Source of the DNA: Escherichia coli
Lineage (GTDB): Bacteria; Pseudomonadota; Gammaproteobacteria; Enterobacterales; Enterobacteriaceae
Reading direction: 5' to 3' (one strand)
Length of the DNA: 64,000 bases
Assembly (NCBI RefSeq): GCF_050320075.1
Contig: NZ_CP190021.1
Shown: piece by piece, positions 3,663 to 34,238 of the stretch
Position numbering within the stretch: position 1 is the first letter of the stretch
Layout: each line of letters starts with the position of its first letter
Notes under the pieces: model-generated
Database searches by the model: none
The model's input: only the letters and a program-made list of their open reading frames with translations
Told to the model about the DNA's origin: nothing
Program-made: the position numbers and the translations under genes

Positions 3663-3783
3663 GCATAGCTGACCTTGCCAGGCCTGCTTCGCCCTGTAGT
3701 GACGCGATCAACGGGCAGGAAACATTCCCCTTTCGTGCATGGCAGGCGCACACGAGTTCAGACAGCACGGTTTCCATGCGCGC
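3658..3783 (-). pseudogene. merR: merR 3' remnant (last ~41 codons of MerR)
   Basis: Minus-strand translation ends ...[39 protein letters not shown], matching the Tn21/Tn501 MerR C-terminus; upstream residues are unrelated. Confidence 0.75.
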
Positions 3784-17382: not shown

Positions 17383-17775
17383 ATGTACGAAGGCGAAGAA
17401 AGGAAAAAACTTTCACTCTACCTTCACCCGGAGGACTCTGCCGATTGTCTTGCACTGGCTGAAATCGAAACTGTTCCCCGGAAAAAACGGGGGGAGTTAT
17501 ATCGGCAGGCTTTGATAACCGGCCTGATAATGCATCAGCTTGATGAGCGAATTCCCGCCGTGTTAACCGCGCTATTCACCAGAGAATTGAATGCGGATGA
17601 GGTCATTAGTCAGATTGCCAGGATAACAGGCTGGAAACCCTCCTCCGGTGATTTAAAAGAGGTACTGAAGGCGTTGGGAGGGCTTCAGAGTACAGTTTCA
17701 CCAGAACACTCTCAGGATGACGGTGAACAGGCCCGTCTGAAAGCGGCTAGGGTGAAGATGCAAAACCTGATCTAA
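17383..17775 (+). CDS. stbB: ParR/StbB-like partition adaptor
   Basis: 130-aa ORF 4 bp after stbA. Confidence 0.6.
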   Translation: MYEGEERKKLSLYLHPEDSADCLALAEIETVPRKKRGELYRQALITGLIMHQLDERIPAVLTALFTRELNADEVISQIARITGWKPSSGDLKEVLKALGGLQSTVSPEHSQDDGEQARLKAARVKMQNLI

Positions 17776-17858
17776 AAAAGTCTCGCTCCGTGAAACCTGC
17801 AAAATTTCTCGGGGTGTGCGGCTTAATTTTTAGATTTCCGCGTTTCCCGTCATTTGAG

Positions 17859-18038
17859 TCAATGGAGTGCTGGTTGACAGCTCCTCACTCTGAAGGACGG
17901 GGATTCCCACATATGCAGCCAGATTTCCGGGTAGTGTGGTTTCAGACGTTGTTCGATTTCATTCTGTAGCGCCTGAAGTGTGCCTGATTTGAGTTTTTTT
18001 GTGCTCTGGCGGTCGAAAAGAATTTCAATGCGGATCAT
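17859..18038 (-). pseudogene. impC: impC-like (DinI-family) remnant, 59 codons, diverging after ~40 residues
   Basis: Minus-strand translation MIRIEILFDRQSTKKLKSGTLQALQNEIEQRLKPHYPEIW..., recognised from memory as the ImpC N-terminus; no umuD/umuC-like impA/impB follow; below the track's length cutoff. Confidence 0.55.
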
Positions 18039-18061
18039 GTTCTCATCTTCCTTTTCTTTTG

Positions 18062-18077
18062 CTGTATATATATACAG
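18062..18077. promoter_or_regulatory. Consensus LexA (SOS) box CTGTATATATATACAG
   Basis: Exact CTGT-N8-ACAG palindrome 24 bp upstream of the impC-like start. Confidence 0.85.
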
Positions 18078-18431
18078 TATTCTAATAACTGAATCCGCAC
18101 ACAGTCAAATGTCATTGTTCTGACTAAAAAACGCTCAATTCTCTGAGGGTATGGCTGTATGCCTGCTGTGGAGTGCTGTGTCCAGCTTATCCACAGCATT
18201 TTGTGCACGGTTCTGTGGACAAAATACCTGGTTACCCAGGCCGTGCCGGCACGTTAACCGGGCTGCATCCGATGCAAGTGTGTCGCTGTCGCCGGCCTCC
18301 TCACCCGGTCACGTTTCGTCGTTCCTCCTCCACGCGCTGCGGCTTCGGGGCCGCACCTGCATTCGTATGCGGTCGCCCGGTTACAGGTGCGGCACGGCCT
18401 GATGGAGGCCGCATGTGAGAGGAGAATTCCC

Positions 18432-19358
18432 ATGCCAAACTGGTGCAGTAACCGTATGCATTTTTCTGGTGAACCGGCACAGATTGCTGAGATTAAACGA
18501 CTGGCCAGTGGTGCCGTCACACCGTTTTATCGCCGCGCCACAAATGAAGGTATTCAGCTGTTTCTGGCCGGAAGTGCCGGACTTCTGCAGACCACTGAAG
18601 ATGTGTGGTTTGAACCGTGCCCCGGACTGACGGCTGCCGGACGTGGCGTTGTATCGCCGGAGAATATCGCGTTCACCCGCTGGCTGACACACCTGCAGAA
18701 CGGTGTACTGCTGGATGAGCAAAACTGCCTGATGCTGCATGAACTCTGGCTGCAGAGCGGTACTGGCCAGCGTCGCTGGGAAGGATTACCGGACGATGTC
18801 AGGGATACCATCACCGCGCTTTTCACCGCAAAAAGAGGTGACTGGTGTGGCTTCTGGAGTAACGAGGATGTATCGGTGTGGTGGAACCGTCTGTGTGACA
18901 ACGTACTGCCGGAAAAAACCATGCCGTTTGACCTGCTGACGGTTCTGCCCACCCGCCTTGATGTTGAAGTGAATGGCTTTAACGGTGGTGTTCTGAACGG
19001 TGTTCCTTCTGCATATCACTGGTATACCGAACAGTATGGCGTGAAGTGGCCTTGTGGGTATGACCTGAATATCAGCAGTCAGGGAGACAACTTCATTCAG
19101 GTTGATTTCGACACGCCGTGGTGTCAGCCGGAAAGCGACGTTATTGCAGAATTAAGCCGCCGTTTCAGCTGCACGCTGGAGCACTGGTATGCCGAACAGG
19201 GCTGTGATTTCTGTGGCTGGCAGTTGTATGAGCGCGGAGAGCTCGTTGATGTGCTGTGGGGGGAGCTGGAATGGTCTTCCCCGACAGATGACGATGAGCT
19301 GCCGGAAGTCACCGGACCTGCGTGGATAGTCGACAAGGTGGCGCATTATGGCGGATGA
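18432..19358 (+). CDS. Conserved leading-region protein of unknown function (cysteine/tryptophan-rich)
   Basis: ATG at 18432 with GGAGAA RBS (MPNWCSNRMHFSGEP...); track ORF starts earlier at 18387. Confidence 0.65.
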   Translation: MPNWCSNRMHFSGEPAQIAEIKRLASGAVTPFYRRATNEGIQLFLAGSAGLLQTTEDVWFEPCPGLTAAGRGVVSPENIAFTRWLTHLQNGVLLDEQNCLMLHELWLQSGTGQRRWEGLPDDVRDTITALFTAKRGDWCGFWSNEDVSVWWNRLCDNVLPEKTMPFDLLTVLPTRLDVEVNGFNGGVLNGVPSAYHWYTEQYGVKWPCGYDLNISSQGDNFIQVDFDTPWCQPESDVIAELSRRFSCTLEHWYAEQGCDFCGWQLYERGELVDVLWGELEWSSPTDDDELPEVTGPAWIVDKVAHYGG

Positions 19359-19742
19359 AGTATGACGGAGACGGGCGGGCTACCGCCCGTTTCTTTTCCG
19401 GTAAAGGATGTCGCCGTGCTCCTCTTTTTACTGCGCCGGCTGACGCGGCGCGGCATAAACGCTGCCTGTGGTCAGTGTCCCGCGTCCGGCCGGGCACGGG
19501 ACGGGCGCTTTTACCGCTCCCGGCTGGCGTCGGTGACAGTGTACGCCAGCCTGTCGCCCTTTTCTGATGAACGCCCTTCAAGCCGCTTTCGCGGCATAAC
19601 CTTGCCGTCAGAAAGACGACGGCTGCGGTATTCCACGGTCGGCCTGACCCGTTACCGGACGCGGTGAACAGCCCACAGGCAGCGGGGAACGGGCACCACA
19701 GGGGTGCCCTCCCGGTGCCCTCTGTAAGAGAAGGAGTTTGGT

Positions 19743-20426
19743 ATGTCCCGTTTTGTCCTCGGTAACTGCATCGATGTTATGGCCCGTATCCCTGATAACG
19801 CCATTGATTTCATCCTCACCGACCCGCCATATCTCGTCGGTTTCCGTGACCGTTCCGGGCGCACCATCGCCGGCGATAAAACCGATGAGTGGCTGCAACC
19901 GGCCTGTAATGAAATGTTCCGCGTACTGAAAAAAGACGCGTTAATGGTGAGCTTCTACGGCTGGAACCGCGTCGATCGCTTTATGGCCGCCTGGAAAAAT
20001 GCGGGATTCAGCGTTGTTGGTCACCTGGTCTTCACCAAAAACTACACATCGAAGGCCGCATATGTGGGCTATCGCCACGAATGCGCCTACATCCTGGCAA
20101 AAGGCCGTCCACGTCTGCCACAAAACCCGCTGCCGGACGTGCTGGGCTGGAAATATTCGGGCAATCGCCATCACCCGACGGAAAAGCCCGTTACCAGCCT
20201 GCAACCGCTGATTGAGAACTTCACACACCCGAACGCAATTGTGCTGGACCCGTTTGCAGGCAGCGGCTCAACCTGCGTCGCCGCCCTCCAGTCCGGACGC
20301 CGGTATATCGGTATCGAGCTGCTTGAGCAGTATCACCGTGCCGGGCAGCAACGCCTTGCCGCCGTGCAACGGGCCATGCAGCAGGGGGCCGCGAATGATG
20401 ACTGGTTTATGCCGGAGGCTGCGTAA
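19743..20426 (+). CDS. Orphan beta-class DNA amino-methyltransferase (N6-adenine or N4-cytosine)
   Basis: Motif IV DPPY at residues 27-30 precedes motif I (LDPFAGSGST) near the C-terminus; no restriction endonuclease gene adjacent. Confidence 0.85.
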   Translation: MSRFVLGNCIDVMARIPDNAIDFILTDPPYLVGFRDRSGRTIAGDKTDEWLQPACNEMFRVLKKDALMVSFYGWNRVDRFMAAWKNAGFSVVGHLVFTKNYTSKAAYVGYRHECAYILAKGRPRLPQNPLPDVLGWKYSGNRHHPTEKPVTSLQPLIENFTHPNAIVLDPFAGSGSTCVAALQSGRRYIGIELLEQYHRAGQQRLAAVQRAMQQGAANDDWFMPEAA

Positions 20427-20648
20427 ATGAACTATGCAGGACACGAAAAACTGCGCGCCGAAGTGGCGGAGGTGGCCAATGCCATGTGCGACCTGCGTAC
20501 AACCATGAATGAGATGGAGCAGCGGTACAGCTTTAATGCCGACACCCTGCCGGAACGTCTGGTGCGTCAGACGCTGTTTCGCGCAAACCGCCTCCTGATG
20601 GAGGCATATACCGAAATTCTGGAACTGGAAGCGTGCTTTAAAGATTGA
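20427..20648 (+). CDS. Hypothetical small protein coupled to the methyltransferase
   Basis: 73-aa ORF starting at the MTase stop (TAAATG). Confidence 0.5.
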   Translation: MNYAGHEKLRAEVAEVANAMCDLRTTMNEMEQRYSFNADTLPERLVRQTLFRANRLLMEAYTEILELEACFKD

Positions 20649-20661
20649 GAAGGAGACGAGA

Positions 20662-21096
20662 ATGTACGGAACATGCGAAACGCTATGCCGGGAGCTGGCA
20701 GTAAAGTATCCGGGAGACATGCCGCTGATGCTGGTTATCTGGTCCCCGGAAGAGATTCAGGCCCTCGCTGACGGAATGGATATTTCCCTGTCCGATCATG
20801 AAATCAGAACCGTCCTGGCGCGCCTGGAGGACATCCCGGAAGACCAGCGGACTGAATCCGGTATTTCTTCCGGCGTGGCGATGGAGATCATCAATAACGT
20901 GAGCGAAAACCGCCAGGTGACCGTCCCTGCTGAACTGCTGGCGTCCCTGATTCAGACCGCTGAACAGGCATTGTGGAAACGTGAATGGGCCGCCCGGGAT
21001 CATGGCCTCGCCGTCCCGGAATGCGTCACCCGCCGTCAGGCGGTGATTAATCAGGCCCGCACCCTGCTGAAAAACAACAGACACGAAAACGACTGA
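20662..21096 (+). CDS. Hypothetical protein, paralog of the 22808-23230 gene
   Basis: 144-aa ORF with RBS AAGGAGACGAGAA-ATG identical to that of the paralog; shared RQVTVPA motif. Confidence 0.65.
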   Translation: MYGTCETLCRELAVKYPGDMPLMLVIWSPEEIQALADGMDISLSDHEIRTVLARLEDIPEDQRTESGISSGVAMEIINNVSENRQVTVPAELLASLIQTAEQALWKREWAARDHGLAVPECVTRRQAVINQARTLLKNNRHEND

Positions 21097-21141
21097 TGTT
21101 ATCGCCGCCTCCGGGCGGCGATTCAGGGAGAACGATTAATC

Positions 21142-21918
21142 ATGAACGAAAACACAACACTGAACGCACTGATTTGTCGTCACGCCCGCAACCTGCTGCT
21201 GGCGCAGGGCTGGCCGGAAGAGACGGATGTTGACCAGCGGAACCCGAACCATCCGGGCTGGATCAGCATTTATGTTCTGCTGGATGCGCCCCGGCTGGCG
21301 ACGTTACTTATCAACCGTCACGGCGGCGCACTGCCGCCGCTCCTGGCCTCCGCCATTCACAAACTGACCGGAACCGGGGCGGAACTTGTACTGTCCGGCA
21401 GTCAGTGGCAGTCGCTGCCGGTACTTCCGGCAGACGGAACGCAGGTGTCTTTCCCGTATGCCGGTGAGTGGCTGGCAGAGGACGAAATCAGGGCAGTTCT
21501 TGATGCGGTACGCGATGCAGTACGCTGTGTCAGTTACCAGGTGGCAGAAGATACGCGGCGTATCCGGGCGGCGCTGACCACCACCGGTCAGACGTTACTG
21601 ACCCGCCAGACGCGCCGCTTTCGCCTGGTCGTGAAGGAGAGCGATCACCCCTGCTGGCTCGATGAGGACGACGAAAACCTGCCCGTGGTGCTCGACGCCA
21701 TCCTGAACCGGGGCGCACGTTTTTCGGCGGTGGAAATGTATCTGGTCAGCGATTGTATTGAACATATCCTGTCCAGTTGGCTGGCCTGGGATGTGCTGCG
21801 TATACCGGATGAACCGCCCCGCCGCTGGTTTGACCGTGGTGTTCTGCGGGAGGTGGTCCGGGAAGCCCGGAACGAAATCCGCAGCATGGCGGATGCCCTG
21901 GCAAAAATCCGGAAATGA
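21142..21918 (+). CDS. Hypothetical protein
   Basis: 258-aa ORF with GGGAGA RBS. Confidence 0.6.
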
Positions 21919-21974
21919 TGACACTGGCGGGGTAAATCCCCGCCTTTTTCCTGCCGGTCCCCGGACAGAGCACA

Positions 21975-22315
21975 AAGGACGTCGCCGCCGGCTCCGCTTT
22001 ACCCGGCCATGCAGGGCATGGCCTTGTGGTTTTTCAGTTATGTGGCCGCCGTGTCGTGTGCGGGCTGTGCCGTGCCTCCATCTTAGCCGGGCTGGCAGGG
22101 ATGCAAGGGTACGCTTCGCCGCTGCGGTCACCCGGTCCCTCCTTCCCGTCTGCCGTGATTTTCCGGTCGTTCACCCGCTCAGATTTCGCGGTCTCACCCT
22201 CCAACTCCCGCCAGCCGTGTGCGTCAGGCTGCGGCTTCCCTTGCGCCCTGTGCATCCCCACCTTATCGCCCGGCTTTTATGGAGGCACGGCACCGCCCGG
22301 TGTCGCGGAATATGT
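21975..22315. repeat. Leading-region repeat family A, copy 1 (~340 bp), candidate ssDNA promoter (Frpo/ssi-like)
   Basis: Near-identical to 28922-29265; ends immediately upstream of the KlcA-like gene. Confidence 0.65.
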
Positions 22316-22335
22316 GAACAACGGAGGAAAACATC

Positions 22336-22761
22336 ATGCAATATGCGAAACCTGTCACTCTGAACGTTGAAGAGTGCGACCGTCTGTCTTTTCTGCCTTA
22401 CCTGTTTGGCCAGGATTTTCTGTATGCCGAAGCGTCTGTATACGCGCTGGCGAAACAAATGATGCCGGAATATGAAGGCGGATTCTGGCACTTCATCCGA
22501 CTGCCGGACGGTGGCGGTTACATGATGCCGGATGGCGACCGTTTTCACATGGTGAACGGTGCAAACTGGTTTGACCGTACCGTGAGTGCTGATGCCGCAG
22601 GCATCATCCTTACCTCCCTTGTGATTAACCGCCAGTTGTGGCTGTACCACGACAGCGGGGATGCAGGACTGACCCAGCTTTACCGGATGCGCGATGCGCA
22701 GTTGTGGCGTCACATCGAATTTCACCCTGAATGCAACGCGATTTACGCAGCACTGGACTGA
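22336..22761 (+). CDS. klcA: KlcA/ArdB-family anti-restriction protein
   Basis: 141-aa ORF with pattern LSFLPYLFG...[19 protein letters not shown]...[10 protein letters not shown] resembling RK2 KlcA from memory. Confidence 0.75.
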
Positions 22762-22807
22762 TTAACGGACGGGGCGGCAATGCCGCCCCTGTAAAGGAGA
22801 CGAGAAC

Positions 22808-23230
22808 ATGTACTGTACTGTTAAAGAAATTATCCGCGATGTACTGGATACAGACGTGCCGGACAGTGAATGCGTTTTTGCCGTGGTGCTGACCCGTGGG
22901 GATGTGCGCCACATAGCCCAGGACTGGAGTCTGACAGACGATGAGCTGGAAACCGTCATGCAGCGGCTGGACGATGCCTTTGAATATGGTGCGGATGTCA
23001 GCGTTGTTCACGGCGTTGTTCGTGAACTGATGGAAGAAAAGCGCGCCAGCCGTCAGGTGACAGTCCCGGCGGTGATGCTGGAAAAAGTGTTGGCGCTGGC
23101 AGGCAGTGAAATGAAGCGCCTGTATGCCGTCGGGAGTGAGAACGGGGGCGACGGTGATGCGTTCGTCAGGGAAGAACGCGAAGCAATGGACGTTGTGTTA
23201 CAGGCGCTGGACGGGGAGCACATGTCATGA
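22808..23230 (+). CDS. Hypothetical protein, paralog of the 20662-21096 gene
   Basis: 140-aa ORF; shared RBS and RQVTVPA motif. Confidence 0.65.
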   Translation: MYCTVKEIIRDVLDTDVPDSECVFAVVLTRGDVRHIAQDWSLTDDELETVMQRLDDAFEYGADVSVVHGVVRELMEEKRASRQVTVPAVMLEKVLALAGSEMKRLYAVGSENGGDGDAFVREEREAMDVVLQALDGEHMS

Positions 23231-23418
23231 ATATCAGCACAGAAACCCGCGAAATTCTGCGCAATTACAAAGCCGTGATTAATGCGCGGCGTCGTGAAAT
23301 GGGGCAGAAACCGCTCACCACTGCGCAGATTGTTGATGAAATCTGCGATTTTGTGGCGAATCAGCAGGCGGTTTTCCTCGGTGGTCACTATATCCTTCAG
23401 GGCAGCAGAAACAGGTGA
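23227..23418 (+). CDS. Hypothetical small protein, translationally coupled (TCATGA overlap)
   Basis: 63-aa ORF. Confidence 0.4.
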   Translation: MNISTETREILRNYKAVINARRREMGQKPLTTAQIVDEICDFVANQQAVFLGGHYILQGSRNR

Positions 23419-23620
23419 TACAGGGCAGGCGGTGGAGGCCGCCTGTCAGCCCGCGCGAAAACCCCTGGCAGGCTGACGCCTGCCGGAAATGCGGGGTGCA
23501 GCGCCTGCGGCGCTGCCGGCCCGGCTTTCCGGTCAGAAGGTAGTGTATGGCTGTATGCAGGGAACAGGTGTGATATTCCGTGACACTGTCACCGTTTCTG
23601 GCTGTCTTTTATTGCGCCCA

Positions 23621-24125
23621 CTTCGGCTCCCGGCTGCCTGGCGGCATCCGGTCGTCAGGCCCGACTCCGACAGGCAGCTGCTGGCGCACCCGCCAGTCTC
23701 CGCCGAACCCGCTGGCGCGGTTTCGGGCTGCCGCTACGGTCCGATGCGTGAAAACCCGGCTTGCAGCGACCGTTCCGGTCGCGCCGCCCCTGTCGCGCCG
23801 TGACCTGCGCTCCCTGCACACCTGACGGTGTGTGAGGAAACTGCGCCTGATGGCGCAGCAGTCTTCCCTCCTGCCACCACCCCTGCGGCCTGTTTCCCGC
23901 TGTGGACTTTCCGGGGGGCAGACGTAACCCCCTCCCGTTCCATCTGTCCAGGGTGAGATGCACCGGCCACAAAATTTTTAGCCATGAACCCGGCTAAAAA
24001 TTTTGCGTCCGCCCCCGGACAGCTGTCCCGTGAGGCGGTAAACGGGCCCCCATCGGAAAGGTCCACTGCGGGGAGAAACCCCTGTGAAGTGGACGGCAGG
24101 AGGAGCTTTCGCTCCTCTGAAGGGG
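23621..24125. repeat. Leading-region repeat family B, copy 1 (~505 bp), candidate ssDNA promoter upstream of ssb
   Basis: Highly similar to 29964-30465 and partly to 33013-33345; contains a 14-bp perfect hairpin CAAAATTTTTAGCC-N8-GGCTAAAAATTTTG. Confidence 0.65.
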
Positions 24126-24186
24126 CACATGAACGTCCCGTCGCCGGTATCCGGTTTATCTCACATCTTTCAGTCAGGAGGTTCTT

Positions 24187-24714
24187 ATGAGTGCACGTGG
24201 TATCAACAAGGTCATCCTCGTCGGGCGTCTGGGCAATGATCCGGAAGTCCGTTACATCCCCAACGGGGGCGCAGTGGCAAACCTGCAGGTGGCCACATCA
24301 GAAAGCTGGCGTGACAAACAGACGGGGGAGATGCGGGAGCAGACGGAATGGCACCGCGTGGTGCTGTTCGGCAAGCTCGCGGAAGTGGCAGGTGAATATC
24401 TGCGCAAGGGTGCGCAGGTCTACATCGAAGGTCAGCTTCGCACCCGTAGCTGGGAAGATAACGGTATCACCCGTTACGTCACTGAAATTCTTGTTAAGAC
24501 CACGGGCACCGTGCAGATGCTGGGACGTGCACCACAGCAGAACGCTCAGGCGCAACCGAAGCCTCAGCAGAATGGGCAGCCACAGAGTGCTGACGCGACG
24601 AAAAAAGGTGGCGCGAAAACGAAAGGCCGTGGACGTAAGGCCGCGCAGCCAGAGCCTCAGCCGCAACCGCCGGAGGGGGAGGATTACGGGTTTTCAGACG
24701 ATATCCCGTTCTGA
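24187..24714 (+). CDS. ssb: Single-stranded DNA-binding protein
   Basis: 175-aa [36 protein letters not shown]... with Q/P-rich linker and acidic DDIPF tail. Confidence 0.95.
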
Positions 24715-24765
24715 CTGGCCTGACTGTGATAACCGCCCCGCCCTGCGCGGGGCATCACCGGAGAG

Positions 24766-25005
24766 ATGAGGATGAGCGAATATTTCAGAATACTTCAGGG
24801 ACTGCCGGACGGCTCCTTTACCCGCGAACAGGCGGAAGCCGTTGCCGCACAGTACCGGAACGTCTTTATCGAGGATGATCAGGGAACGCATTTTCGCCTG
24901 GTTGTCCGTCAGGATGGCACGTTGATCTGGCGCTCCTGGAATTTTGAGGACTGTGCCGGGTACTGGATGAACCAGTACATCAGGGATTTCGGGATTCTTA
25001 AGTAA
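24766..25005 (+). CDS. Hypothetical small protein
   Basis: 79-aa ORF between ssb and the ParB-like gene. Confidence 0.5.
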
Positions 25006-25057
25006 GAGAGGTGCCGGACGCGCGAACGTCCGGCAGGACATAAGCAATTATAAGGGG

Positions 25058-27022
25058 ATGATTATGCCTGTAACGAAGTGTGAACCAGAAACCACCCGCA
25101 AAGCAAGCCGTAAATCTGTAAAAACGCAGGAAACTGTCCTGTCTGCCCTGCTGGCGCAGACGGAGGAAGTGAGCGTGCCGCTGGCCTCGCTGATTAAATC
25201 ACCGCTGAATGTGCGCACGGTGCCGTATTCTGCGGAGTCCGTCAGCGAACTGGCGGAGTCCATTAAGGGCGTCGGACTGCTGCAGAATCTGGTCGTGCAT
25301 ACCCTGCCTGGTGACCGTTACGGTGTCGCCGCAGGTGGTCGCCGACTGGCTGCACTCAACATGCTGGCAGAGCGTGGCATCATTCCGGCTGACTGGCCTG
25401 TACGCGTGAAGGTTATTCCGCAGGAGCTGGCGACGGCTGCATCAATGACTGAAAACGGTCATCGTCGGGATATGCACCCTGCCGAACAGATTGCCGGATT
25501 CCGTGCGATGGCGCAGGAAGGCAAAACGCCTGCACAAATCGGTGATTTGCTGGGCTATTCGCCCCGCCACGTTCAGCGAATGCTGAAACTGGCAGACCTT
25601 GCGCCTGTCATCCTCGATGCGCTGGCAGAAGACCGCATCACCACAGAGCACTGTCAGGCGCTGGCGCTGGAGAACGACACCGCGCGTCAGGTGCAGGTGT
25701 TTGAAGCCGCCTGCCAGTCGGGATGGGGCGGTAAACCGGAAGTACAGACCATTCGTCGTCTGGTGACCGAAAGTGAAGTGGCGGTGGCAGGTAACAGTAA
25801 ATTCCGCTTCGTGGGGGCTGATGCTTTCTCACCTGACGAACTGCGTACTGATTTGTTCAGCGATGACGGGGACGGTTATGTCGACCGCGTGGCGCTCGAT
25901 GCTGCCCTGCTGGAAAAACTCCAGGCTGTCGCTGAACACCTTCGGGAAGCCGAAGGCTGGGAATGGTGCGCCGGACGCATGGAGCCTGTCGGTGAGTGCC
26001 GTGAGGATGCCGGAACATACCGCTGTCTGCCGGAGCCGGAAGCGGTGCTGACGGAGGCAGAAGAAGAACGCCTGAACGAACTGATGACGCGTTACGACGC
26101 GCTGGAAAACCAGTGTGAGGAATCCGACCTGCTGGAAGCAGAAATGAAGCTGATGCGCTGCATGGCGAAGGTCAGGGCGTGGACGCCGGAGATGCGTGCC
26201 GGAAGTGGCGTGGTGGTGTCCTGGCGTTATGGAAACGTATGTGTCCAGCGTGGTGTGCAGTTGCGCAGTGAAGATGACGCGACTGATGACGCTGACCGCA
26301 CGGAACAGGTGCAGGAGAAAGCGTCAGTGGAGGAAATCAGTCTGCCGTTGCTGACGAAAATGTCTTCCGAACGCACGCTGGCAGTCCAGGCAGCACTGAT
26401 GCAGCAACCGGACAAATCTCTGGCACTGCTGGCATGGACGCTCTGCCTGAATGTGTTTGACAGCGGAGCGTACAGTAAACCAGCACAAATCAGCCTGGAA
26501 TGTAAACATTATTCGCTGACCAGCGATGCGCCGTCAGGGAAGGAAGGTGCCGCATTCCTGGCGCTGATGGCAGAAAAAGCCCGTCTTGCGGCCCTGTTAC
26601 CGGAGGGATGGTCACGGGACATGACGACGTTCCTGTCACTCAGTCAGGAGGTGCTGTTATCCCTGCTCAGTTTCTGCACCGCATGCAGCCTTAACGGTGT
26701 CCAGACCCGCGAGTGTGGTCGCACGTCACGCAGTCCGCTTGACTCACTGGAGAGCGCCATCGGTTTTCACATGCGCGACTGGTGGCAGCCGACGAAAGCA
26801 AACTTCTTCGGACACCTGAAAAAGCCGCAGATTATCGCAGCCCTGAATGATGCCGGACTGTCCGGTGCCGCACGGGACGCAGAGAAGATGAAGAAAGGCG
26901 ATGCCGCTGAACATGCAGAGTTCCATATGAAAGACAACCGCTGGGTGCCTGGCTGGATGTGTTCACCACGTCCACAGACGGATGCCACTGAACGCGCCGA
27001 TAACCTGGCTGATGCCGCCTGA
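25058..27022 (+). CDS. ParB/Srx-like N-terminal domain protein of the leading region
   Basis: 654-aa ORF; N-terminal region has a ParB-box-like GGRRLAA motif and an HTH-like segment. Confidence 0.75.
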   Translation: MIMPVTKCEPETTRKASRKSVKTQETVLSALLAQTEEVSVPLASLIKSPLNVRTVPYSAESVSELAESIKGVGLLQNLVVHTLPGDRYGVAAGGRRLAALNMLAERGIIPADWPVRVKVIPQELATAASMTENGHRRDMHPAEQIAGFRAMAQEGKTPAQIGDLLGYSPRHVQRMLKLADLAPVILDALAEDRITTEHCQALALENDTARQVQVFEAACQSGWGGKPEVQTIRRLVTESEVAVAGNSKFRFVGADAFSPDELRTDLFSDDGDGYVDRVALDAALLEKLQAVAEHLREAEGWEWCAGRMEPVGECREDAGTYRCLPEPEAVLTEAEEERLNELMTRYDALENQCEESDLLEAEMKLMRCMAKVRAWTPEMRAGSGVVVSWRYGNVCVQRGVQLRSEDDATDDADRTEQVQEKASVEEISLPLLTKMSSERTLAVQAALMQQPDKSLALLAWTLCLNVFDSGAYSKPAQISLECKHYSLTSDAPSGKEGAAFLALMAEKARLAALLPEGWSRDMTTFLSLSQEVLLSLLSFCTACSLNGVQTRECGRTSRSPLDSLESAIGFHMRDWWQPTKANFFGHLKKPQIIAALNDAGLSGAARDAEKMKKGDAAEHAEFHMKDNRWVPGWMCSPRPQTDATERADNLADAA

Positions 27023-27073
27023 TGAACAACCACACCGCCCCGCCGGAGACGGGGCGGCAGAGGGAGAAATACG

Positions 27074-27511
27074 ATGATGAATACCGAACTGACACTGAAT
27101 GCCCTGCAGTCCATGAATGCCCAGGAATATGAAGAAATCCGTGCTGCGGGAAGCGATATGCGCCGTAATCTCACTCACGAGGTGATGCGTAAAGTGGACG
27201 CACCGGCTAACTGGATGATGAACGGAGAGTATGGCAGCGAGTTCGGGGGCTTTTTCCCCGTCCAGGTTCGTTTCACGCCAGCCCACGAACGTTTCCACCT
27301 GGCATTATGTTCGCCGGGAGACGTCTCTCAGCTCTGGATGCTGGTTCTGGTGAATGGTGGTGGACAGCCTTTCGCCGTCGTTCAGGTGCAACATATCTTC
27401 ACGCCTGCCGCGATCAGTCACACGCTGGCGCTTGCCGCGACACTGGATGCGCAGGGATACAGTGTTAACGACATCATCCATATCCTGATGGCAGAAGGAG
27501 GTCAGGCATGA
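27074..27511 (+). CDS. psiB: Plasmid SOS inhibition protein PsiB
   Basis: 145-aa ORF recognised from memory; immediately followed by psiA. Confidence 0.9.
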
Positions 27512-28227
27512 GCGCACGTTCACGGGCACTGATCCCCCTCAGCGCAGAACAACAGGCCGCCATGCAGGCGGTGGCTGTCACAGAACAACGTCGTCGTCAG
27601 GGACGCACACTTTCAGCATGGCCTTATGCCACCGCTTTCTTTCGCTGCCTGAATGGCAGTCGCCGGATTTCGCTGACCGATCTCCGCTTTTTTGCCCCTG
27701 CGCTGACGAAGGAGGAATTTCATGGCAACCGTCTCCTGTGGCTGGCTGCCGTGGATAAACTGATTGAAAGTTTTGGGGAAGTCTGTGTTCTTCCCCTGCC
27801 ATCCGATGCGGGGCACCGTCTGTTCCCGTCCGTGCCTTTTCGTGAAGGTGAGCGTCGTCGTCAGAAAACCACGCTGACAGAGCAGAAATACAGCCGCCAG
27901 CGGGAACGTGAGGCAGAACGACGGGAACTGGAATACCAGACATGTTTTGCTCAGGCGCAGATTGACCTTGCGTTTCATACTCCCGCCACGGTCGGAAGCT
28001 GGTTGTCCCGCTGGTCTGGTGTTGTTGAGGAGCATGATCTGGAAACGATTTTCTGGGGGTGGTGCGGGCGTTTTCCATCACTGTCATCATTTGACCGGTT
28101 TTTCTGGCAGGAGGAACCACTCTGGCGGCTGATTTTTGAAGCCGGTGAGGCCGGTCGTGGTGCACCGGTACAGGTACGTGCACTTGAGCAGTGGATGATC
28201 CCGAACAAGCTGGAGAACGTAATATGA
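27508..28227 (+). CDS. psiA: Plasmid SOS inhibition protein PsiA
   Basis: 239-aa ORF overlapping the psiB stop (ATGA). Confidence 0.9.
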
Positions 28228-28820
28228 TGAAATCAGACGAAAAATACCAGGTTCCCGCGTGGATGCGACCTCTGTTGCCGTTGCTCTGCAACACCGGGGG
28301 GAACGATCCGGAAGAACTGCTGAATGATACAGAAACCACTGCCAGTGCGAATGTTGTCCGTTATGTACTGATAGTTGCTGTGCGGTCGCAGGTTGATCTG
28401 CTGCAGCTTCTGTACAGGAAAGGGCTGTTGCGCACAGAGATACCAGGTGGCTTTTCACCGGAAGAAGCGCAGGCACTCCTGGATAATCTGGTGCGCAGCC
28501 ATATCAGCAAGGCGCTGTCGGGCGAGCGAATGGCAGCCCGTGACAGAAATGCCGATCTGGCCTGGATTGGACAGCAACTGGTCGATGACGCCTGGTTTGT
28601 CCGTGCCACACTGGAAGCGCATGGGATGAGCGTCGGAAATGAGAGTCCCCCTGCTCCGCCGGAGACAATGCCGGACATACAGACACGGGAACTGGTGATG
28701 TTGATCAAGCGACTGGCATCATCGCTGAAAGCGGTGAAACCGGACAGTTGTGTGGTGCGTGAAGCGCAGGACTGGCTGCGCGACAGAAAACTTGTGGATA
28801 TCACAGATATTCTCCGGTGA
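28224..28820 (+). CDS. Hypothetical protein translationally coupled to psiA
   Basis: ATGATGA overlap with psiA stop; 198 aa from ATG 28224 (track ORF starts at 28191). Confidence 0.55.
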   Translation: MMKSDEKYQVPAWMRPLLPLLCNTGGNDPEELLNDTETTASANVVRYVLIVAVRSQVDLLQLLYRKGLLRTEIPGGFSPEEAQALLDNLVRSHISKALSGERMAARDRNADLAWIGQQLVDDAWFVRATLEAHGMSVGNESPPAPPETMPDIQTRELVMLIKRLASSLKAVKPDSCVVREAQDWLRDRKLVDITDILR

Positions 28821-28921
28821 ACCAGGCATGTATATTTTACGCAGGGACACGCCGATCATGATCGTTTCATATCAGGGGTGGTCTGGAGGTCATGCGGCGT
28901 GTCCTCTGCACTCGCCGGAAT

Positions 28922-29265
28922 AAGGAAGTCGCCGGCGGCTCCGCTTTTACCCGGCCATGCGGGGCATGGCCTTGTGGGGTTTCAGCTCTGTGGCCTCAGC
29001 GTCGTGTGCGGGCTGTGCCGTGCCTCCATCTTAGCCGGGCTGGCAGGGATGCAAGGGTACGCTTCGCCGCTGCGGTCACCCGGTCCCTCCTTCCCGTCTG
29101 CCGTGATTTTCCGGTCGTTCGTCCGCTCAGGTTTCGCGGCCTCACCCTGCAACTCCCGTCAGCCGTGTGCGTCAGGCTGCGGCTTCCCTTGCGCCCCTGC
29201 ATCCCCGCCTTATCGCCCGGCTTTTATGGAGGCACGGCACCGCCCGGTGTCGCAGAACATGTGAC
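28922..29265. repeat. Leading-region repeat family A, copy 2, candidate ssDNA promoter upstream of ardA
   Basis: Near-identical to 21975-22315. Confidence 0.65.
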
Positions 29266-29281
29266 TATGGAGGATTCGGGA

Positions 29282-29782
29282 ATGTCTGTTGTTGCACCTG
29301 CTGTATACGTTGGAACCTGGCACAAATACAACTGTGGAAGCATCGCCGGACGCTGGTTTGACCTGACCACGTTTGATGATGAGCGCGACTTTTTCGCCGC
29401 CTGCCGTGCTCTTCACCAGGATGAAGCCGATCCTGAACTGATGTTTCAGGATTATGAGGGATTCCCGGGGAATATGGCCTCTGAATGCCATATCAACTGG
29501 GCCTGGGTTGAAGGCTTCCGCCTGGCACGGGATGAAGGCTGCGAAGAGGCTTATCGTCTCTGGGTGGAGGATACCGGTGAGACGGATTTTGACACCTTCC
29601 GCGATGCCTGGTGGGGCGAGGCTGACAGTGAGGAGGCTTTTGCGGTTGAGTTCGCCAGTGATACCGGCCTGCTGGCTGACGTGCCGGAGACGGTGGCGCT
29701 CTATTTTGACTATGAGGCGTATGCGCGGGATTTATTCCTGGACTCCTTCACCTTTATTGACGGTCATGTGTTCCGTCGGTGA
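29282..29782 (+). CDS. ardA: Anti-restriction protein ArdA (type I R-M inhibitor)
   Basis: 166-aa acidic protein [38 protein letters not shown]...; the track ORF 28892-29782 extends upstream through the repeat. Confidence 0.95.
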
Positions 29783-29963
29783 TTTACTCCCCCGCTCCGG
29801 CGGGGGTATGGCCTGCCAGGCCGCCGGAAAACCCTGGCAGGCTTACGCCTGCCTGAAATGCAGGAGGGCCGCGCCTGCGGCGCTGCCCTTCCTGCCCGTC
29901 ATGGTGTGAGGCATTTTTCTGTTATGTCGTTTCTGTTGTTCTGATTTCCGGAGGCGGGGACAC

Positions 29964-30465
29964 CTTCGGCTCCCGGCTGCCTGGCGGCATCCGGTCGTCA
30001 GGCCCGACTCCGACAGGCAGCTGCTGGCGCACCCGCCAGTCTCCGCCGAACCCGCTGGCGCGGTTTCGGGCTGCCGCTACGGTCCGATGTCTGAAAAACC
30101 AGGCTTGCAGCGACCGTTCCGGTCGCGCCGCCCCTGTCGCGCCGGAAACGGCGCTCCCTGCACACCTGACGGTGTGTAAGGCCACTGCGCCTGATGGCGC
30201 AGTCAACCCTTCCGCCGCCACCCCTGCGGCCTGTTTCCCGCTGTGGACTTTCCGGGGGCTGGAGTAACCACATCCCGTTTCAGCAGTCCAGGGGAAGATA
30301 TACCGTCCACAAAATTTTTAGCCATAAACCCGGCAAAAAATTTTGCGTCCGCCCCCGGACAGCTGCCCCGTGACGTGGTGACGGACGCCCCATCGGAAAG
30401 GTCCACTGCGGGGAGAAACCCCGAAGAAGTGGACGGCAGAAGGGGCTTTCGCCCCTCCGGGGAGC
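29964..30465. repeat. Leading-region repeat family B, copy 2
   Basis: Aligned by eye to copy 1 over ~500 bp. Confidence 0.65.
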
Positions 30466-30510
30466 AACCGGTCGGCCCGGCGACCTGATTCAGCAGAAGG
30501 AGACGTTTTC

Positions 30511-30945
30511 ATGACAGTCAGCAGCACGATTTCCGTTTTTTGCCGCGACGGGGTGTTCCGTACCGTTTACTGCCACCTGCACGGGGAGCCGACCTGGAAC
30601 GGTCGCATCCTGCATACCCACTATGCCACCGGTCAGCAGGCCGAAGCCCTGGTTGAACACGGTGATATCCGTTGCCTCGGTCCCCGTTGCGACAAACCCG
30701 CCGGGCATACGCTTCAGAACCCGGTGGACGGTGTGACGGCTTATTACGGACGTGACAGTGGTTTCCGGATGGACAGTGAGGCGCGTGAGTACCGTTCTTT
30801 CAGGGAGGCTATTGCCACTGAAAGCACTGAAGAGGTGCGCTTCCATTATGTGTTCATCGACGGCTACTGGAAGGTGATGTACCGCACGCCGGAAGGCTGG
30901 AAGATGAAAGCGCTCGCGCTGGCACTGCGTCGCTGTCCGAAATGA
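30511..30945 (+). CDS. Hypothetical protein
   Basis: 144-aa ORF with GAAGGAG RBS directly after repeat B2. Confidence 0.6.
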   Translation: MTVSSTISVFCRDGVFRTVYCHLHGEPTWNGRILHTHYATGQQAEALVEHGDIRCLGPRCDKPAGHTLQNPVDGVTAYYGRDSGFRMDSEAREYRSFREAIATESTEEVRFHYVFIDGYWKVMYRTPEGWKMKALALALRRCPK

Positions 30946-31038
30946 AAAAAAGGCAGGGCGATAAACCCTGCCTCTCTCCGCCGGCGCTTCCCCGCCAGGA
31001 AGTCCGGCATCTCAATCACTATCTATGGAGATTATGCC

Positions 31039-31305
31039 ATGAGACCATCAATTATCTTCGCAACCGCCGAGTATGTAAAGCGTCTGCGTGAAGAGTGCCT
31101 GCGGGAGAATAAACCCCTGCACCGCCATACCCGCTTCAGACGTCAGGAGCTGGCACAGGATGAGATTAACCCGGACGTCCTGGCGATGAGCGGCCATATC
31201 GCCAGACGCTGCAGTGAGCAGAAGCGGGTGCGTATCCCCGCTATGAAAGTCAGCGAATGGGGCCACCTGCTCCGCGCGCTTGAAATTGAGCGGGTCTGCC
31301 ACTGA
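31039..31305 (+). CDS. Hypothetical small basic protein
   Basis: 88-aa ORF upstream of the Rpn-like gene. Confidence 0.45.
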   Translation: MRPSIIFATAEYVKRLREECLRENKPLHRHTRFRRQELAQDEINPDVLAMSGHIARRCSEQKRVRIPAMKVSEWGHLLRALEIERVCH

Positions 31306-31369
31306 TTAACCCTTGCCGTCTGCCTGTGCAGGCGGCAGGATACGTTCAGACATCTCACCAGGAGGAACC

Positions 31370-32308
31370 GTGAGTCAGAAGAAAACCACCACGACGCCCA
31401 CGCCGCATGATGCCGCGTTCCGGTCGTTCCTGGCGAATCCCGACGTCGCCAGAGATTTTCTGGAACTGCATCTTCCGGCGGAGTACCGGCAGTTGTGCGA
31501 CCTGTCCACGCTGAAGCTGGAACCCGCCACCTTTGTTGAGCCGGACCTGCATCAGTACGCCAGCGATATCCTCTGGAGTGTGAAAACCACCGGGGGTGAA
31601 GATGGCTATGTTTATACGCTCATCGAGCACCAGAGCACCGAAAATCTGTACATGCCTTTCCGCATGTTACGTTACAGTGTGGCGGCGATGCAGAGACATC
31701 TGGAGCAGCACAAAACGTTGCCACTGGTGATTCCTGTACTGTTCTATCATGGTGAGCGCAGCCCGTACCCGTACAGCATGAACTGGCTGGACTGTTTTGA
31801 GAATCCGGCACTTGCGGCTAAAATATACACAAAGCCGTTTCCGCTGGTTGATATCACTGTCGTTGATGACAATGAAATCATGAACCATCGCCGGATGGCC
31901 GCACTGACGCTGCTGATGAAGCATATCCGCCATCGTGACATGATGGAGCTGCTGGACAAACTCCCGCAGGTCATGGTGGAAATTTCAGACGAGCAGGTGC
32001 GTGTTCTGATTCATTACATCGTTAACGCAGGGGACTCTGTATCACCGGAATTTATGCGGGCGCTGGCTGAGCGTCTGCCGCAGCATGAGGATAAACTGAT
32101 GACTATCGCAGAACGTCTTGAGCAAAAAGGTCGCCAGGAGGGCAGGATGGAAGGACGCATGGAAGGACGCATGGAAGGACGCATGGAAGGAGCGCTTGAA
32201 AAAGCCCTGGCTATTGCGTGCCAGCTTCAGAAAATGGGGATGACGCCGGAGCAGATTAAGCAGGCTACCGGACTTTCCGATGACGAACTGAAGAAAATCA
32301 CTCACTGA
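31370..32308 (+). CDS. Rpn (YhgA-like) family PD-(D/E)xK nuclease/recombination-promoting protein
   Basis: GTG at 31370 with GGAGG RBS; N-terminal TPHDAAFRSFL, core YVYTLIEHQSTEN...FRMLRYSVAAMQRHL, recognised from memory as the YhgA/Rpn family. Confidence 0.75.
   Translation: MSQKKTTTTPTPHDAAFRSFLANPDVARDFLELHLPAEYRQLCDLSTLKLEPATFVEPDLHQYASDILWSVKTTGGEDGYVYTLIEHQSTENLYMPFRMLRYSVAAMQRHLEQHKTLPLVIPVLFYHGERSPYPYSMNWLDCFENPALAAKIYTKPFPLVDITVVDDNEIMNHRRMAALTLLMKHIRHRDMMELLDKLPQVMVEISDEQVRVLIHYIVNAGDSVSPEFMRALAERLPQHEDKLMTIAERLEQKGRQEGRMEGRMEGRMEGRMEGALEKALAIACQLQKMGMTPEQIKQATGLSDDELKKITH
32141..32188. repeat. In-frame 12-bp tandem repeat (GGACGCATGGAA x ~4) encoding (EGRM)n inside the Rpn-like gene
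   Basis: Read directly from sequence. Confidence 0.9.
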
Positions 32309-32314
32309 GTAAAC

Positions 32315-32345
32315 ATCACAGCCCGGCAAAATGCCGGGCTTTTTT
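32315..32345 (+). terminator. Rho-independent terminator after the Rpn-like gene
   Basis: AGCCCGGCA-AAA-TGCCGGGCT stem followed by TTTTTT. Confidence 0.7.
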
Positions 32346-32369
32346 GTCAGCAGGAGCAGAGCAAATAGC

Positions 32370-32528
32370 ATGACGATTGCAGAACGTCTTATTCAAAAAG
32401 GCGCACTTGAAGTGGCGCGGGAAATAGCCTGCCGGCTGCGGGATATGGGCTGGACGCCGGAACGGATTCAGGAGGCAACCGGACTTTCCGGTGAAGAACT
32501 GAAAAAGCTGTTTCCTGATGAGCAGTAG
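32370..32528 (+). CDS. Small protein duplicating the C-terminal module of the Rpn-like protein (RpnS-like candidate)
   Basis: 52-aa ORF MTIAERLIQKGALEVAREIACRLRDMGWTPERIQEATGLSGEELKKLF..., parallel to the Rpn tail MTIAERLEQKG...ALAIACQLQKMGMTPEQIKQATGLSDDELKK. Confidence 0.55.
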   Translation: MTIAERLIQKGALEVAREIACRLRDMGWTPERIQEATGLSGEELKKLFPDEQ

Positions 32529-32558
32529 CCTGGCATTCAGCCAGGCTGTGAATCACGC

Positions 32559-32810
32559 TCACACATCCTCTGCCGTTTCCCCCAGTTCATTTTCCAGTCG
32601 CCTGATGATATCTGCCTTACGCATCCCCTGCATGTGAGGCAGCAGGTCACGGACTGAAAGTGCCTGGGTGGTCCTCCAGACGGTGACGTCCACCTGTTCC
32701 GCATTTTCCCAGGCGTGCCATGTTCTCTGCGTCACGCCAAATTCTCTGGCCGCTTTTTCGCGTGACCAGAGCATGCTTTTTCGCCAGATTCGCAGTTCCC
32801 AGCCGGTCAT
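32559..32810 (-). CDS. Small HTH DNA-binding protein (Cro/Xre-like)
   Basis: 83-aa ORF with EFGVTQRTWHAWENA HTH-like segment; twin palindromes in its 5' region. Confidence 0.6.
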   Translation of the reverse strand: MTGWELRIWRKSMLWSREKAAREFGVTQRTWHAWENAEQVDVTVWRTTQALSVRDLLPHMQGMRKADIIRRLENELGETAEDV

Positions 32811-32824
32811 AAAACACCTTTGAA

Positions 32825-32912
32825 AAAGTGAAAAAACTTCACTTTATTTTATCATCACAATTGCCAAATCAGCGCGATAAATAAGTGTAAAAAAGTGAAG
32901 AAATTTCACTTT
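32825..32912. promoter_or_regulatory. Two palindromic operator candidates AAAGTGAA-N5-TTCACTTT (32825-32845 and 32892-32912)
   Basis: Identical 8-bp arms in both copies, 67 bp apart, read from sequence. Confidence 0.6.
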
Positions 32913-33012
32913 TTTTGCTTGTAAATGTCGTGCGGTTTTCTCTGTTTTCACCTGTGCGGGAGTGGTGTGCCAGTGACCACCACATGCCATTGTTGTGCCG
33001 TCGTTTTTCTTC

Positions 33013-33345
33013 AGTCGCGCCGTATGCGGCGCTCCCTGCACACCTTACGGTGTGTAAGGCCACTGCGCCTGATGGCGCAGCTGTCTCTGCCTGTCTGCCG
33101 CCGCACTGCGGCCTGTTCTCCGCAGACGGACTTTCCGGGGGTACATACATGACCACATCCCGTTTCAGTCGTCCAGGGGGGAGATGTACCAGCCACAAAA
33201 CTTTTTGCCGCAGGCGTCAAAAACTTTTGCGTCTGCCCCCGGACAACTGCCCCGTGACGTGGTGAGCGTCCCCCGTCGGAAAGGTCCACTGCGGGGAAAT
33301 CCCCGAAGACCCGGACGGCAGAAGGAGCTTCGCTCCTCCGGGAAA
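33013..33345. repeat. Leading-region repeat family B, copy 3 (partial, 3' two-thirds)
   Basis: Aligns to 23792-24125 of copy 1, including a degenerate version of the hairpin. Confidence 0.6.
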
Positions 33346-33389
33346 TGACCTGGCTGTCCCGGCAGTCGTGACGATGAGGAGACAATGTG

Positions 33390-34238
33390 ATGAATCAGAC
33401 TTTACCCACTGCTGACCTGAATACTGCCGGCACGACAGATGTTATTCCGTCTGTGGCTATCGACCGCATCATCGCGCAGCGTAACGAAGGTATTGCACTG
33501 TTCATGCAGGCGATGGAATGCCTGGCGACAGCGCGCAAGATTCTGCTCGATGCGTCAGGTGATATTTTTCTTTACGGGTTTGAAGACTGCGTGACTGATT
33601 CCGTTCGTCGCATAGATAAACCGGAAGAAGCGAAAAGGAATATCACCCGTCTTGCCGACCGGAAAATCTGGGACCGCCTGATGACAGATACGGGCATGTA
33701 CACCTTCATGAGTTCATGCCAGCGTGATGAGTGGAACAGCCAGCTGATGAGCGACACCTGTCCTGAAATCACCCTGGACAATGTACTGGCAACATTCCGC
33801 CATCTGAATGCCTGCAAGATGCAGACATTTGAACAGGGACTGATTGATGTCTACCGGAAATTGTCATGGGATTACAGAACCAATAATCCCTGCCGTCTGG
33901 GTAAGAAAATCATTATTGAAAACCTGCTGTACCGCTGGAGTAACGGGCGTGTGACGCTGGACTGCAGCGGACGGGAGGCACTGGATGACCTGGTACGTCC
34001 GTTTTATCTGCTGGAGGGGCGCAACGTTCCTGACTTCAGGAACAGTATCGGGGCGCAGTATGGTGAATTTCTCGGGAACGGCGACAATGTCGGTAAGCTG
34101 TTAGAAGGGGAATATTTTACGGTGCGTGGCTACCAGAAAGGGACCGTACACATTGTCTTTAAGCGTTCTGACCTTGTTGAAAAACTGAATGATATTATTG
34201 CACGGCATTATCCAGGTGCATTGCCGCCACGAGTCTGA
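33390..34238 (+). CDS. Hypothetical protein, last leading-region gene before oriT
   Basis: ATG at 33390 with GAGGAG RBS (track ORF 33387-34238 starts at a GTG one codon earlier). Confidence 0.6.
   Translation: MNQTLPTADLNTAGTTDVIPSVAIDRIIAQRNEGIALFMQAMECLATARKILLDASGDIFLYGFEDCVTDSVRRIDKPEEAKRNITRLADRKIWDRLMTDTGMYTFMSSCQRDEWNSQLMSDTCPEITLDNVLATFRHLNACKMQTFEQGLIDVYRKLSWDYRTNNPCRLGKKIIIENLLYRWSNGRVTLDCSGREALDDLVRPFYLLEGRNVPDFRNSIGAQYGEFLGNGDNVGKLLEGEYFTVRGYQKGTVHIVFKRSDLVEKLNDIIARHYPGALPPRV

Follow-up and report, generated by a model that had tools for sequence, protein, structure and literature searches.

Orphan methyltransferases are among the most enriched families of genes in leading regions of conjugative plasmids (PMC11541004). 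Here, we compare the closest described systems with a four-gene, methyltransferase-headed operon and its upstream hairpin, located at positions 19359-21918 of a 64,000-nucleotide stretch of Escherichia coli DNA (contig NZ_CP190021.1; the whole stretch is referred to as the window). The nearest described counterpart is M.EcoGIX of plasmid pESBL-EA11 (pESBL) from E. coli O104:H4. Replacement of M.EcoGIX decreased the transfer of pESBL into recipients expressing EcoGIII or EcoRI by up to ~1000-fold, and into a Klebsiella isolate ~9-fold (PMC4288162). The enzyme is promiscuous and produces incomplete N6-methyladenine (m6A) modification at SAY, in vitro on single strands only (PMC7736820). It is silent in the donor, where no SAY modification was detected in the plasmid or the chromosome, and its protection depends on the orientation of the origin of transfer (oriT) and is lost upon oriT inversion. 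Expression of M.EcoGIX must therefore take place in the recipient, from the strand that enters it (PMC7736820).

The study by Wen et al. describes six pESBL operons that are induced up to ~500-fold within 15 min of entry, each with a predicted upstream hairpin and with a start site mapped by rapid amplification of cDNA 5' ends (5' RACE) (PMC12672017). These single-stranded DNA (ssDNA) promoters fall into three classes. The study assigns ssi1-3 and Frpo to class 1, and the klcA and ardA promoters to class 2. The hairpin upstream of M.EcoGIX is the only class 3 promoter, and its 5' RACE start agrees with the hairpin prediction. For this element, a start within the hairpin and activity confined to the single-stranded form are reported from 5' RACE together with time-resolved RNA sequencing. 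The counterparts in plasmid F are named ssp1-3; ssp2 has roadblock activity, whereas ssp3, which functionally stood in for ssp2 with "equivalent strength" as a promoter, does not (bioRxiv 10.64898/2026.01.09.698686). Both the role of the methylase and the mechanism of the ssDNA promoter have been published before (2015, 2020, 2025, 2026). The remaining novelty of the locus described here is modest: three unexplained co-transcribed proteins, evidence for exchangeable promoters, and a candidate hairpin promoter ahead of a DUF1281 gene.

The unit in the window is very probably an M.EcoGIX-type anti-restriction methylase operon of an IncI1 leading region, expressed from an ssDNA hairpin promoter. 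It is composed of the following elements:

19460-19684, - strand: class 3 (ssp3) ssDNA promoter, a long imperfect branched hairpin of the transferred strand (T-strand), recognized by inverted repeat I6, its fold, covariation, and identity to pESBL
19692-19710, + strand: small conserved stem-loop GGGCACC-ACAGG-GGTGCCC, located between the large hairpin and the Shine-Dalgarno sequence GAAGGAG
19743-20426, + strand: M.EcoGIX-family beta-class N6-adenine DNA methyltransferase of 227 residues (YfbB in R64, YfeA in F), identified by profiles, motifs, and identity to the pESBL protein
20427-20648, + strand: YubE-family protein of 73 residues, coupled to the methyltransferase via TAAATG (phrog_4830; PF27407 in an orthologue)
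20662-21096, + strand: DUF1380 protein of 144 residues, acidic (pI 4.8), predicted to be all-helical (PF07128, phrog_9024)
21142-21918, + strand: YubG/YchA-family protein of 258 residues with a predicted alpha/beta fold (phrog_8919, AlphaFold2 model)
21926-21953, + strand (hairpin 21926-21944): intrinsic-terminator-like hairpin GGCGGGG-TAAAT-CCCCGCC followed by TTTTTCC, detected in a terminator scan, which closes the operon

The open reading frame (ORF) list and translations place the four genes exactly where the original prediction had put them. The methyltransferase is identical to M.EcoGIX in 215 of 227 residues (95%), and the two loci share the flanking genes, the upstream hairpin (99% identity), and the position in the IncI1 leading region. 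None of the 12 substitutions affects the DPPY or DPFAGSGST motifs. The plasmid backbones differ in that pESBL has impCAB upstream, where the window has parM/stbB and a truncated dinI-like ORF.

In the proposed mechanism, the - strand, with its 5' end at oriT near 34.7 kb of the window, would enter the recipient as ssDNA during conjugation. Positions 19684-19460 of this T-strand would fold into a long imperfect hairpin, the stem of which would imitate duplex promoter DNA. Host RNA polymerase would start in the lower stem, probably near 19677, and transcribe outward through the genes of the methyltransferase, YubE, DUF1380, and YubG until the terminator at 21926. The methyltransferase would then modify adenines to m6A, within the loose SAY context, while the plasmid is still single-stranded. 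Upon synthesis of the complementary strand, many restriction sites would be hemimethylated and escape cleavage. In double-stranded DNA the hairpin would no longer form, and the operon would become silent. The SAY methylation of ssDNA, protection against EcoGIII and EcoRI, oriT dependence, zygotic induction, and mapped start site are expected here by analogy with the 95-99% identical pESBL copy, for which they are described in the literature.

The methyltransferase and its plasmid context

The window belongs to an IncI1 conjugative plasmid, and the operon is part of its leading region. In a plasmid-collection search, many IncI1 plasmids from E. coli and Salmonella match positions 19359-21918 with 100% identity, and more than 5000 plasmid records, ~80% of which are conjugative, do so with at least 90% identity. 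Such searches reach their ceiling at 5000 near-identical records, and diverged homologues were therefore taken from a contig scan of species-representative genomes, which yielded 37 methyltransferase loci. The gene order in the identical record pFORC44_1 is parM, stbB, DUF1281, "hypothetical", DNA methylase, hypothetical, DUF1380, hypothetical, antirestriction (KlcA/ArdB-like), DUF1380, ssb, DUF905, ParB-like, psiB, psiA, ardA, and nikA/nikB. The leading-region order matches that of pESBL-EA11 and, for the methylase segment, also that of F. The leading-region genes are all on the + strand and directed towards oriT, which makes the - strand the template as well as the transferred strand.

The methyltransferase has its DPPY motif at residue 27, and DPFAGSGST follows at residue 169. 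Motif IV is thus N-terminal to motif I, the order from which a circularly permuted beta-class enzyme had been proposed. The profiles and solved relatives agree with this assignment. The protein matches Pfam N6_N4_Mtase (PF01555) with E = 3.4e-38 over residues 21-201, and NCBIfam NF010253 with 497.5 bits (cut-off 244), and its closest solved relatives in the Protein Data Bank (PDB) are the beta-class enzymes CcrM, RsrI, MboIIA, PvuII, and DpnA. The suggestion that the operon protects incoming DNA by methylation gains support, by analogy, from the published activity of the 95% identical M.EcoGIX (PMC4288162, PMC7736820).

Membership in the same beta-class family as CcrM, and the lack of an annotated cognate endonuclease, would also fit a conventional sequence-specific orphan methyltransferase, which acts on double-stranded DNA in vegetative growth like Dam or CcrM, serves an epigenetic or regulatory role, and recognizes a discrete motif. 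We regard this as very unlikely, since M.EcoGIX left no SAY modification in the donor and modified single strands only (PMC7736820). Furthermore, the gene lies in a leading region behind an ssDNA hairpin, and a consensus scan found no sigma-70-type duplex promoter in 19300-22400, which fits the silence of an M.EcoGIX-type operon in the double-stranded state. Because the published work saw no SAY modification in the donor (PMC7736820), methylome sequencing of plasmid-bearing cells, suggested previously as a check, is probably uninformative, and a new methylated motif would probably not be found in them.

The original prediction had noted that the methyltransferase has no cognate restriction gene. 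In agreement with this, the annotations of homologous plasmid records covering most of the window include no restriction endonuclease (~1960-4960 and the surroundings of 44-46 kb are matched only by repeated or partial alignments); the search was not exhaustive. It could be argued that the operon is a remnant of a Type II restriction-modification system without its endonuclease, or that one of the partners is a novel nuclease, as the best PADLOC model for the methyltransferase is labelled "Type II methyltransferase" and the three partner genes have no assigned function. Either reading is extremely improbable. The partners match no nuclease family in PADLOC, NCBIfam, or Pfam, and the predicted fold of YubG has no nuclease-like relative. 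Thousands of plasmids carry the four-gene unit next to other anti-restriction genes, and the methyltransferase stays while the partner content varies. Moreover, an enzyme with the loose SAY specificity could not shield its host from a specific endonuclease.

M.BceJIII of Burkholderia cenocepacia plasmid pBCA072 belongs to the same family of ssDNA-specific SAY methyltransferases (PMC7736820). Betaproteobacterial homologues (L033-L041) were recovered at 60-67% identity, and their loci differ by lacking YubE, DUF1380, YubG, and the class 3 hairpin. DpnA (M.DpnIIB) of Streptococcus pneumoniae is likewise a beta-class adenine methyltransferase that protects incoming ssDNA from restriction. However, DpnA is encoded by the host, induced by competence, specific for GATC, and belongs to a restriction-modification cassette, whereas the enzyme described here is plasmid-encoded and, by analogy with M.EcoGIX, would be promiscuous and self-expressed from ssDNA. 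The DpnA-named chains in the PDB search were all from Helicobacter.

The class 3 hairpin and its promoter elements

The original prediction described 19359-19742 as a 380-bp structured region that could be a third type of ssDNA promoter. The T-strand of this region folds with an energy of -110.5 kcal/mol, compared to -79.7 +/- 4.8 kcal/mol for shuffled sequences (z = -6.4; none of 100 shuffles was as good), so its structured character is retained. The region is not a single element, however: the first ~35 nt look like a terminator of the DUF1281 gene, and the promoter element spans ~19460-19684. The core hairpin (19455-19690 of the T-strand) has an energy of -73 kcal/mol (z = -6.8), and its arms, formed by inverted repeat I6, are at 19460-19489 and 19655-19684.

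A third promoter type was a correct assignment, corresponding to the published class 3/ssp3, so that repeat families A and B and this element match the three published classes. As had been proposed, the element is not a copy of family A or B: within 17700-34000 it has neither sequence similarity to them nor a second copy. The other two hairpin families are repeated in the window, one at 21975-22317 and 28922-29264, and the other at 23621-24117, 29964-30457, and 32973-33304. The upstream region has 99% mean column identity to pESBL over 462 columns and 95.6% identity to F. The published class 3 promoter (PMC12672017), like ssp3 of F, is the same element in the same position, driving the same operon, with no material difference. 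The class 1 (Frpo/ssi1-3) and class 2 (klcA/ardA) promoters resemble class 3 in being long imperfect T-strand hairpins ahead of leading-region operons directed towards oriT, with mismatches at the presumed -10 element. In contrast to this general likeness, neither class has detectable sequence similarity to the class 3 hairpin, including the three class 1 copies in the window.

Class 3 hairpins are present at 15 methyltransferase loci (12 from the genome scan, and those of pESBL, F, and L007), down to 75% identity. A T-strand alignment of 14 class 3 sequences yields a consensus structure of 67 pairs, in which 97.9% of cells form standard pairs. Compensatory double changes occur in 13 pairs, compared to 4.2 +/- 1.1 in shuffled alignments (none of 500 reached 13) and 1-4 in slid controls. 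The consensus structure is more stable on the T-strand than on the + strand, at -93.5 versus -77.9 kcal/mol with RNA parameters and -44.5 versus -33.8 kcal/mol with DNA parameters. The T-strand also folds better in all 14 individual sequences, with a mean advantage of 4.4 kcal/mol. The folding advantage together with the covariation supports selection acting on the single-stranded DNA that is transferred, not on an RNA. The stem-loop at 19692-19710 carries compensatory changes as well, in F (GGGCGCC/GGCGCCC) and L007 (GGGCGTC/GACGCCC). When 17500-34000 was searched against Rfam, the sole match was a chance one below threshold (Erse sRNA, 20.9 bits versus a gathering score of 138).

An RNA containing the region would adopt the structure as well, which raises the question whether it is mainly an RNA 5' untranslated region element, a priming-only single-strand initiation site, or a replication roadblock, with a transcription start at another place. 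DNA synthesis is also primed by Frpo-type elements, ssp2 is a roadblock (bioRxiv 10.64898/2026.01.09.698686), and our scans did not find canonical -35 and -10 hexamers. Nevertheless, a primary role other than that of a promoter is very unlikely. The T-strand folds consistently better than the mRNA-sense strand, and ssp3 could substitute for ssp2 as a promoter while having no roadblock activity (bioRxiv 10.64898/2026.01.09.698686). In the 99% identical pESBL sequence, the start mapped by 5' RACE reportedly agreed with the hairpin prediction (PMC12672017). Besides acting as a promoter, the class 3 hairpin may have a priming role.

The hairpin region contains further putative elements:

19371-19399, + strand: terminator-like hairpin ACGGGCGG-GCTA-CCGCCCGT and then TTCTTTT, immediately behind the stop codon of DUF1281, proposed from the sequence
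19362-19667, + strand: ORF of 101 residues, annotated as "hypothetical protein" in the RefSeq records of pFORC44_1, pESBL, and F; spurious, inside the hairpin region
19474-19479, - strand: candidate -10 element, T-strand 5'-GACACT-3', on the non-template arm in a position equivalent to the class 2 -10 element
19677, + strand: predicted transcription start, ~7 nt downstream of the candidate -10 element, placed by hairpin geometry

Class 2 hairpins carry a clear TTGCAT-N15-TAAGAT on the T-strand's 3' arm, and a mismatch bubble of 3 nt lies at the -10 element. This layout implies that the promoter runs from the loop to the base, with the 5' arm as the template. Class 3, in contrast, has no recognizable -35 element, and relaxed hexamer scans of both strands of all hairpins gave weak matches only. 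We tentatively propose GACACT as the -10 element of the class 3 promoter. The homologues have CACACT, CATACT, or CAGACT at this place; the A and ACTG are invariant, and the stems on either side covary. The unpaired bases in the candidate are A at -11 and T at -7, both in the window and in the Citrobacter-type variants. The -11A and -7T are the two bases captured by sigma-70. A start near 19677, likewise tentative, would give a 5' untranslated region of ~66 nt containing the stem-loop at 19692-19710. Two other placements were rejected. TAAAAG (19513-19508) loses its T in homologues (GAAAAG), and its would-be -35 element falls in a side-branch loop. A promoter running from the base to the loop has no pair of hexamers with workable spacing on arm A.

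The 101-codon ORF at 19362-19667 is annotated in several records, and it could be a real fifth gene, to which the structure would be incidental. This is most improbable, and the ORF is almost certainly a spurious gene call. It lies inside the hairpin with a terminator-like element just upstream. It is not credible as a gene, because a 1-bp indel between the window and pESBL shifts its frame and because the substitutions follow base-pairing rather than codon logic. The terminator-like element at 19371-19399 is a separate stem-loop in the folds of both strands; a consensus terminator scan did not list it, and its role for DUF1281 is deduced from position and sequence.

Several points weigh against expression of an M.EcoGIX-type operon from the class 3 hairpin as proposed here. 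This allele differs from M.EcoGIX at 12 of 227 residues, and the activity is known from the pESBL copy. The main text of PMC4288162 mentions neither complementation of M.EcoGIX::gent nor a test for polar effects on the operon, so the downstream partner genes could have contributed part of the published M.EcoGIX phenotype. The class 3 hairpin contains no convincing -35 hexamer, with GTCCCG positioned 17 nt upstream of the candidate -10 element, and GACACT matches three of six consensus positions, which keeps the placement of the element and the start tentative. Lastly, the excess of G.T over C.A wobble cells on the T-strand (66 versus 7), which speaks for the T-strand, is partly biased, since the alignment used to predict the consensus structure was that of the T-strand; comparing energies avoids this bias.

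The co-transcribed partner proteins

The stop codon of the methyltransferase gene abuts the start of the 73-residue ORF in the sequence TAAATG, confirming the translational coupling suggested previously. Among 24 loci, the junction is TAAATG, TAATG, or TGATG in 22. A 13-nt gap containing GAAGGAG precedes the 144-residue ORF, and a 45-nt gap precedes the 258-residue ORF. The latter gap (21097-21141) contains a perfect 7-bp G+C stem, CGCCGCC-TCCG-GGCGGCG, without a T run, which could be an mRNA-stabilizing or attenuating element inside the operon.

The description of the partners as unknown still holds, as Pfam, NCBIfam, PADLOC, and PDB searches gave no function for the three ORFs. YubE, DUF1380, and YubG have no match in NCBIfam, PADLOC, or PDB sequence searches, and YubE and YubG have only weak, chance-level Pfam matches. 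Searching the literature for DUF1380 and the yub/yfe names turned up no functional study. The 73-residue protein matches phrog_4830 with E = 1e-33, and its L007 orthologue carries Pfam PF27407 "YubE". The 144-residue protein matches PF07128 (DUF1380) with E = 2.8e-52 and phrog_9024. The 258-residue protein belongs to phrog_8919 and is named YchA, YubG, or NgrC in databases; its counterpart in F is apparently yffB, the gene adjoining ssp2.

The YubG protein was predicted by AlphaFold2 with a mean predicted local distance difference test score (pLDDT) of 89 and a predicted template modelling score of 0.83. The top 50 of its 123 AFDB50 structure matches are family members, fragments, or seemingly fused or mis-called products, none of which has a known function, and a search of BFVD returned nothing. 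The family is small: clustering at 50% leaves 181 representatives, of which many are fragments. The predicted fold of YubG is apparently new, with no known relative. The DUF1380 model reached a pLDDT of 68 and the other four models remained below 50, too poor for a structure search.

The partners are far less conserved than the methyltransferase: across loci, identity is 85-89% for the methyltransferase, 33-77% for YubE, 28-57% for DUF1380, and 43-60% for YubG. L007 lacks DUF1380, and L026 lacks YubE and YubG. In L005, YubG is located between DUF1281 and klcA, with no methyltransferase. Given this variation, and the betaproteobacterial homologues with none of the three, the partners usually travel with the methyltransferase and are not obligatory for it. 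The methyltransferase alone was active in published constructs; the purified methylase lost activity, and an accessory host protein was pursued (PMC7736820). YubE could be the accessory factor whose loss inactivated the purified methylase.

Two DUF1380 paralogues are encoded at 20662-21096 and 22808-23230 (+ strand). They are 26% identical, both acidic, and each located behind an anti-restriction gene, the first in the methylase operon and the second after the KlcA/ArdB-like gene. This shared arrangement hints at a common role in establishment. It is possible, if rather doubtful, that YubE, DUF1380, and YubG/YchA are themselves establishment or anti-defence factors. The interest of the three conserved partner genes lies in their expected induction upon entry into the recipient and in their carriage by thousands of clinical plasmids.

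Exchange of promoter classes and the DUF1281 hairpin

At 11 loci (L011-L013, L015-L018, L021, L023, L024, and L032), the methyltransferase-YubE operon is located behind a full-length class-2-type hairpin with TTGCAT-N15-TACAGT instead of a class 3 hairpin. The hairpin lies ~200-265 nt upstream of the methyltransferase start (for example L012:2725-2985). The hosts include Klebsiella pneumoniae ATCC 13883, Yersinia pestis, Lelliottia, Enterobacter, Salmonella arizonae, and Pantoea. Judging from these sequences, ssDNA promoter classes appear to be swapped between otherwise homologous operons, as exchangeable cassettes. The class-2-type replacement, covariation, T-strand bias, and candidate -10 element are additions to the published work on class 3. 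Concrete mutagenesis targets follow from these data: the stems that covary, -11A and -7T as unpaired bases, and the swap between class 2 and class 3.

A related element is located ahead of the DUF1281 gene:

18237-18401, - strand: shortened class-2-type hairpin of 165 nt (z = -5.5) with a ~75-nt apex deletion and TTGCAT-N15-TAACGT on the 3' arm

The hairpin is homologous to the klcA/ardA promoters and lies ~55 nt upstream of the annotated DUF1281 start (~18456). It is also present in pESBL and absent from the six published ssDNA promoters. Its predicted energy of ~-50 to -70 kcal/mol, which depends on the flanks included, would make it escape the -75 kcal/mol screen of PMC12672017. We speculate that this hairpin may be a seventh ssDNA promoter, possibly weak or decayed.

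Near-identical copies of the operon occur in assemblies labelled as Collinsella, Oscillibacter, Oscillospiraceae, and Streptomyces morookaense (L008, L010, L017, L030, L031, and L043). These labels most likely reflect binning errors or contamination rather than true hosts.

Upstream of the DUF1281 hairpin, the - strand contains a 59-residue ORF at 17859-18038, which reads as a putative truncated DinI-like protein. The ORF sits where pESBL has a dinI-like gene and umuDC (impCAB), and appears to mark a boundary of the leading-region island.

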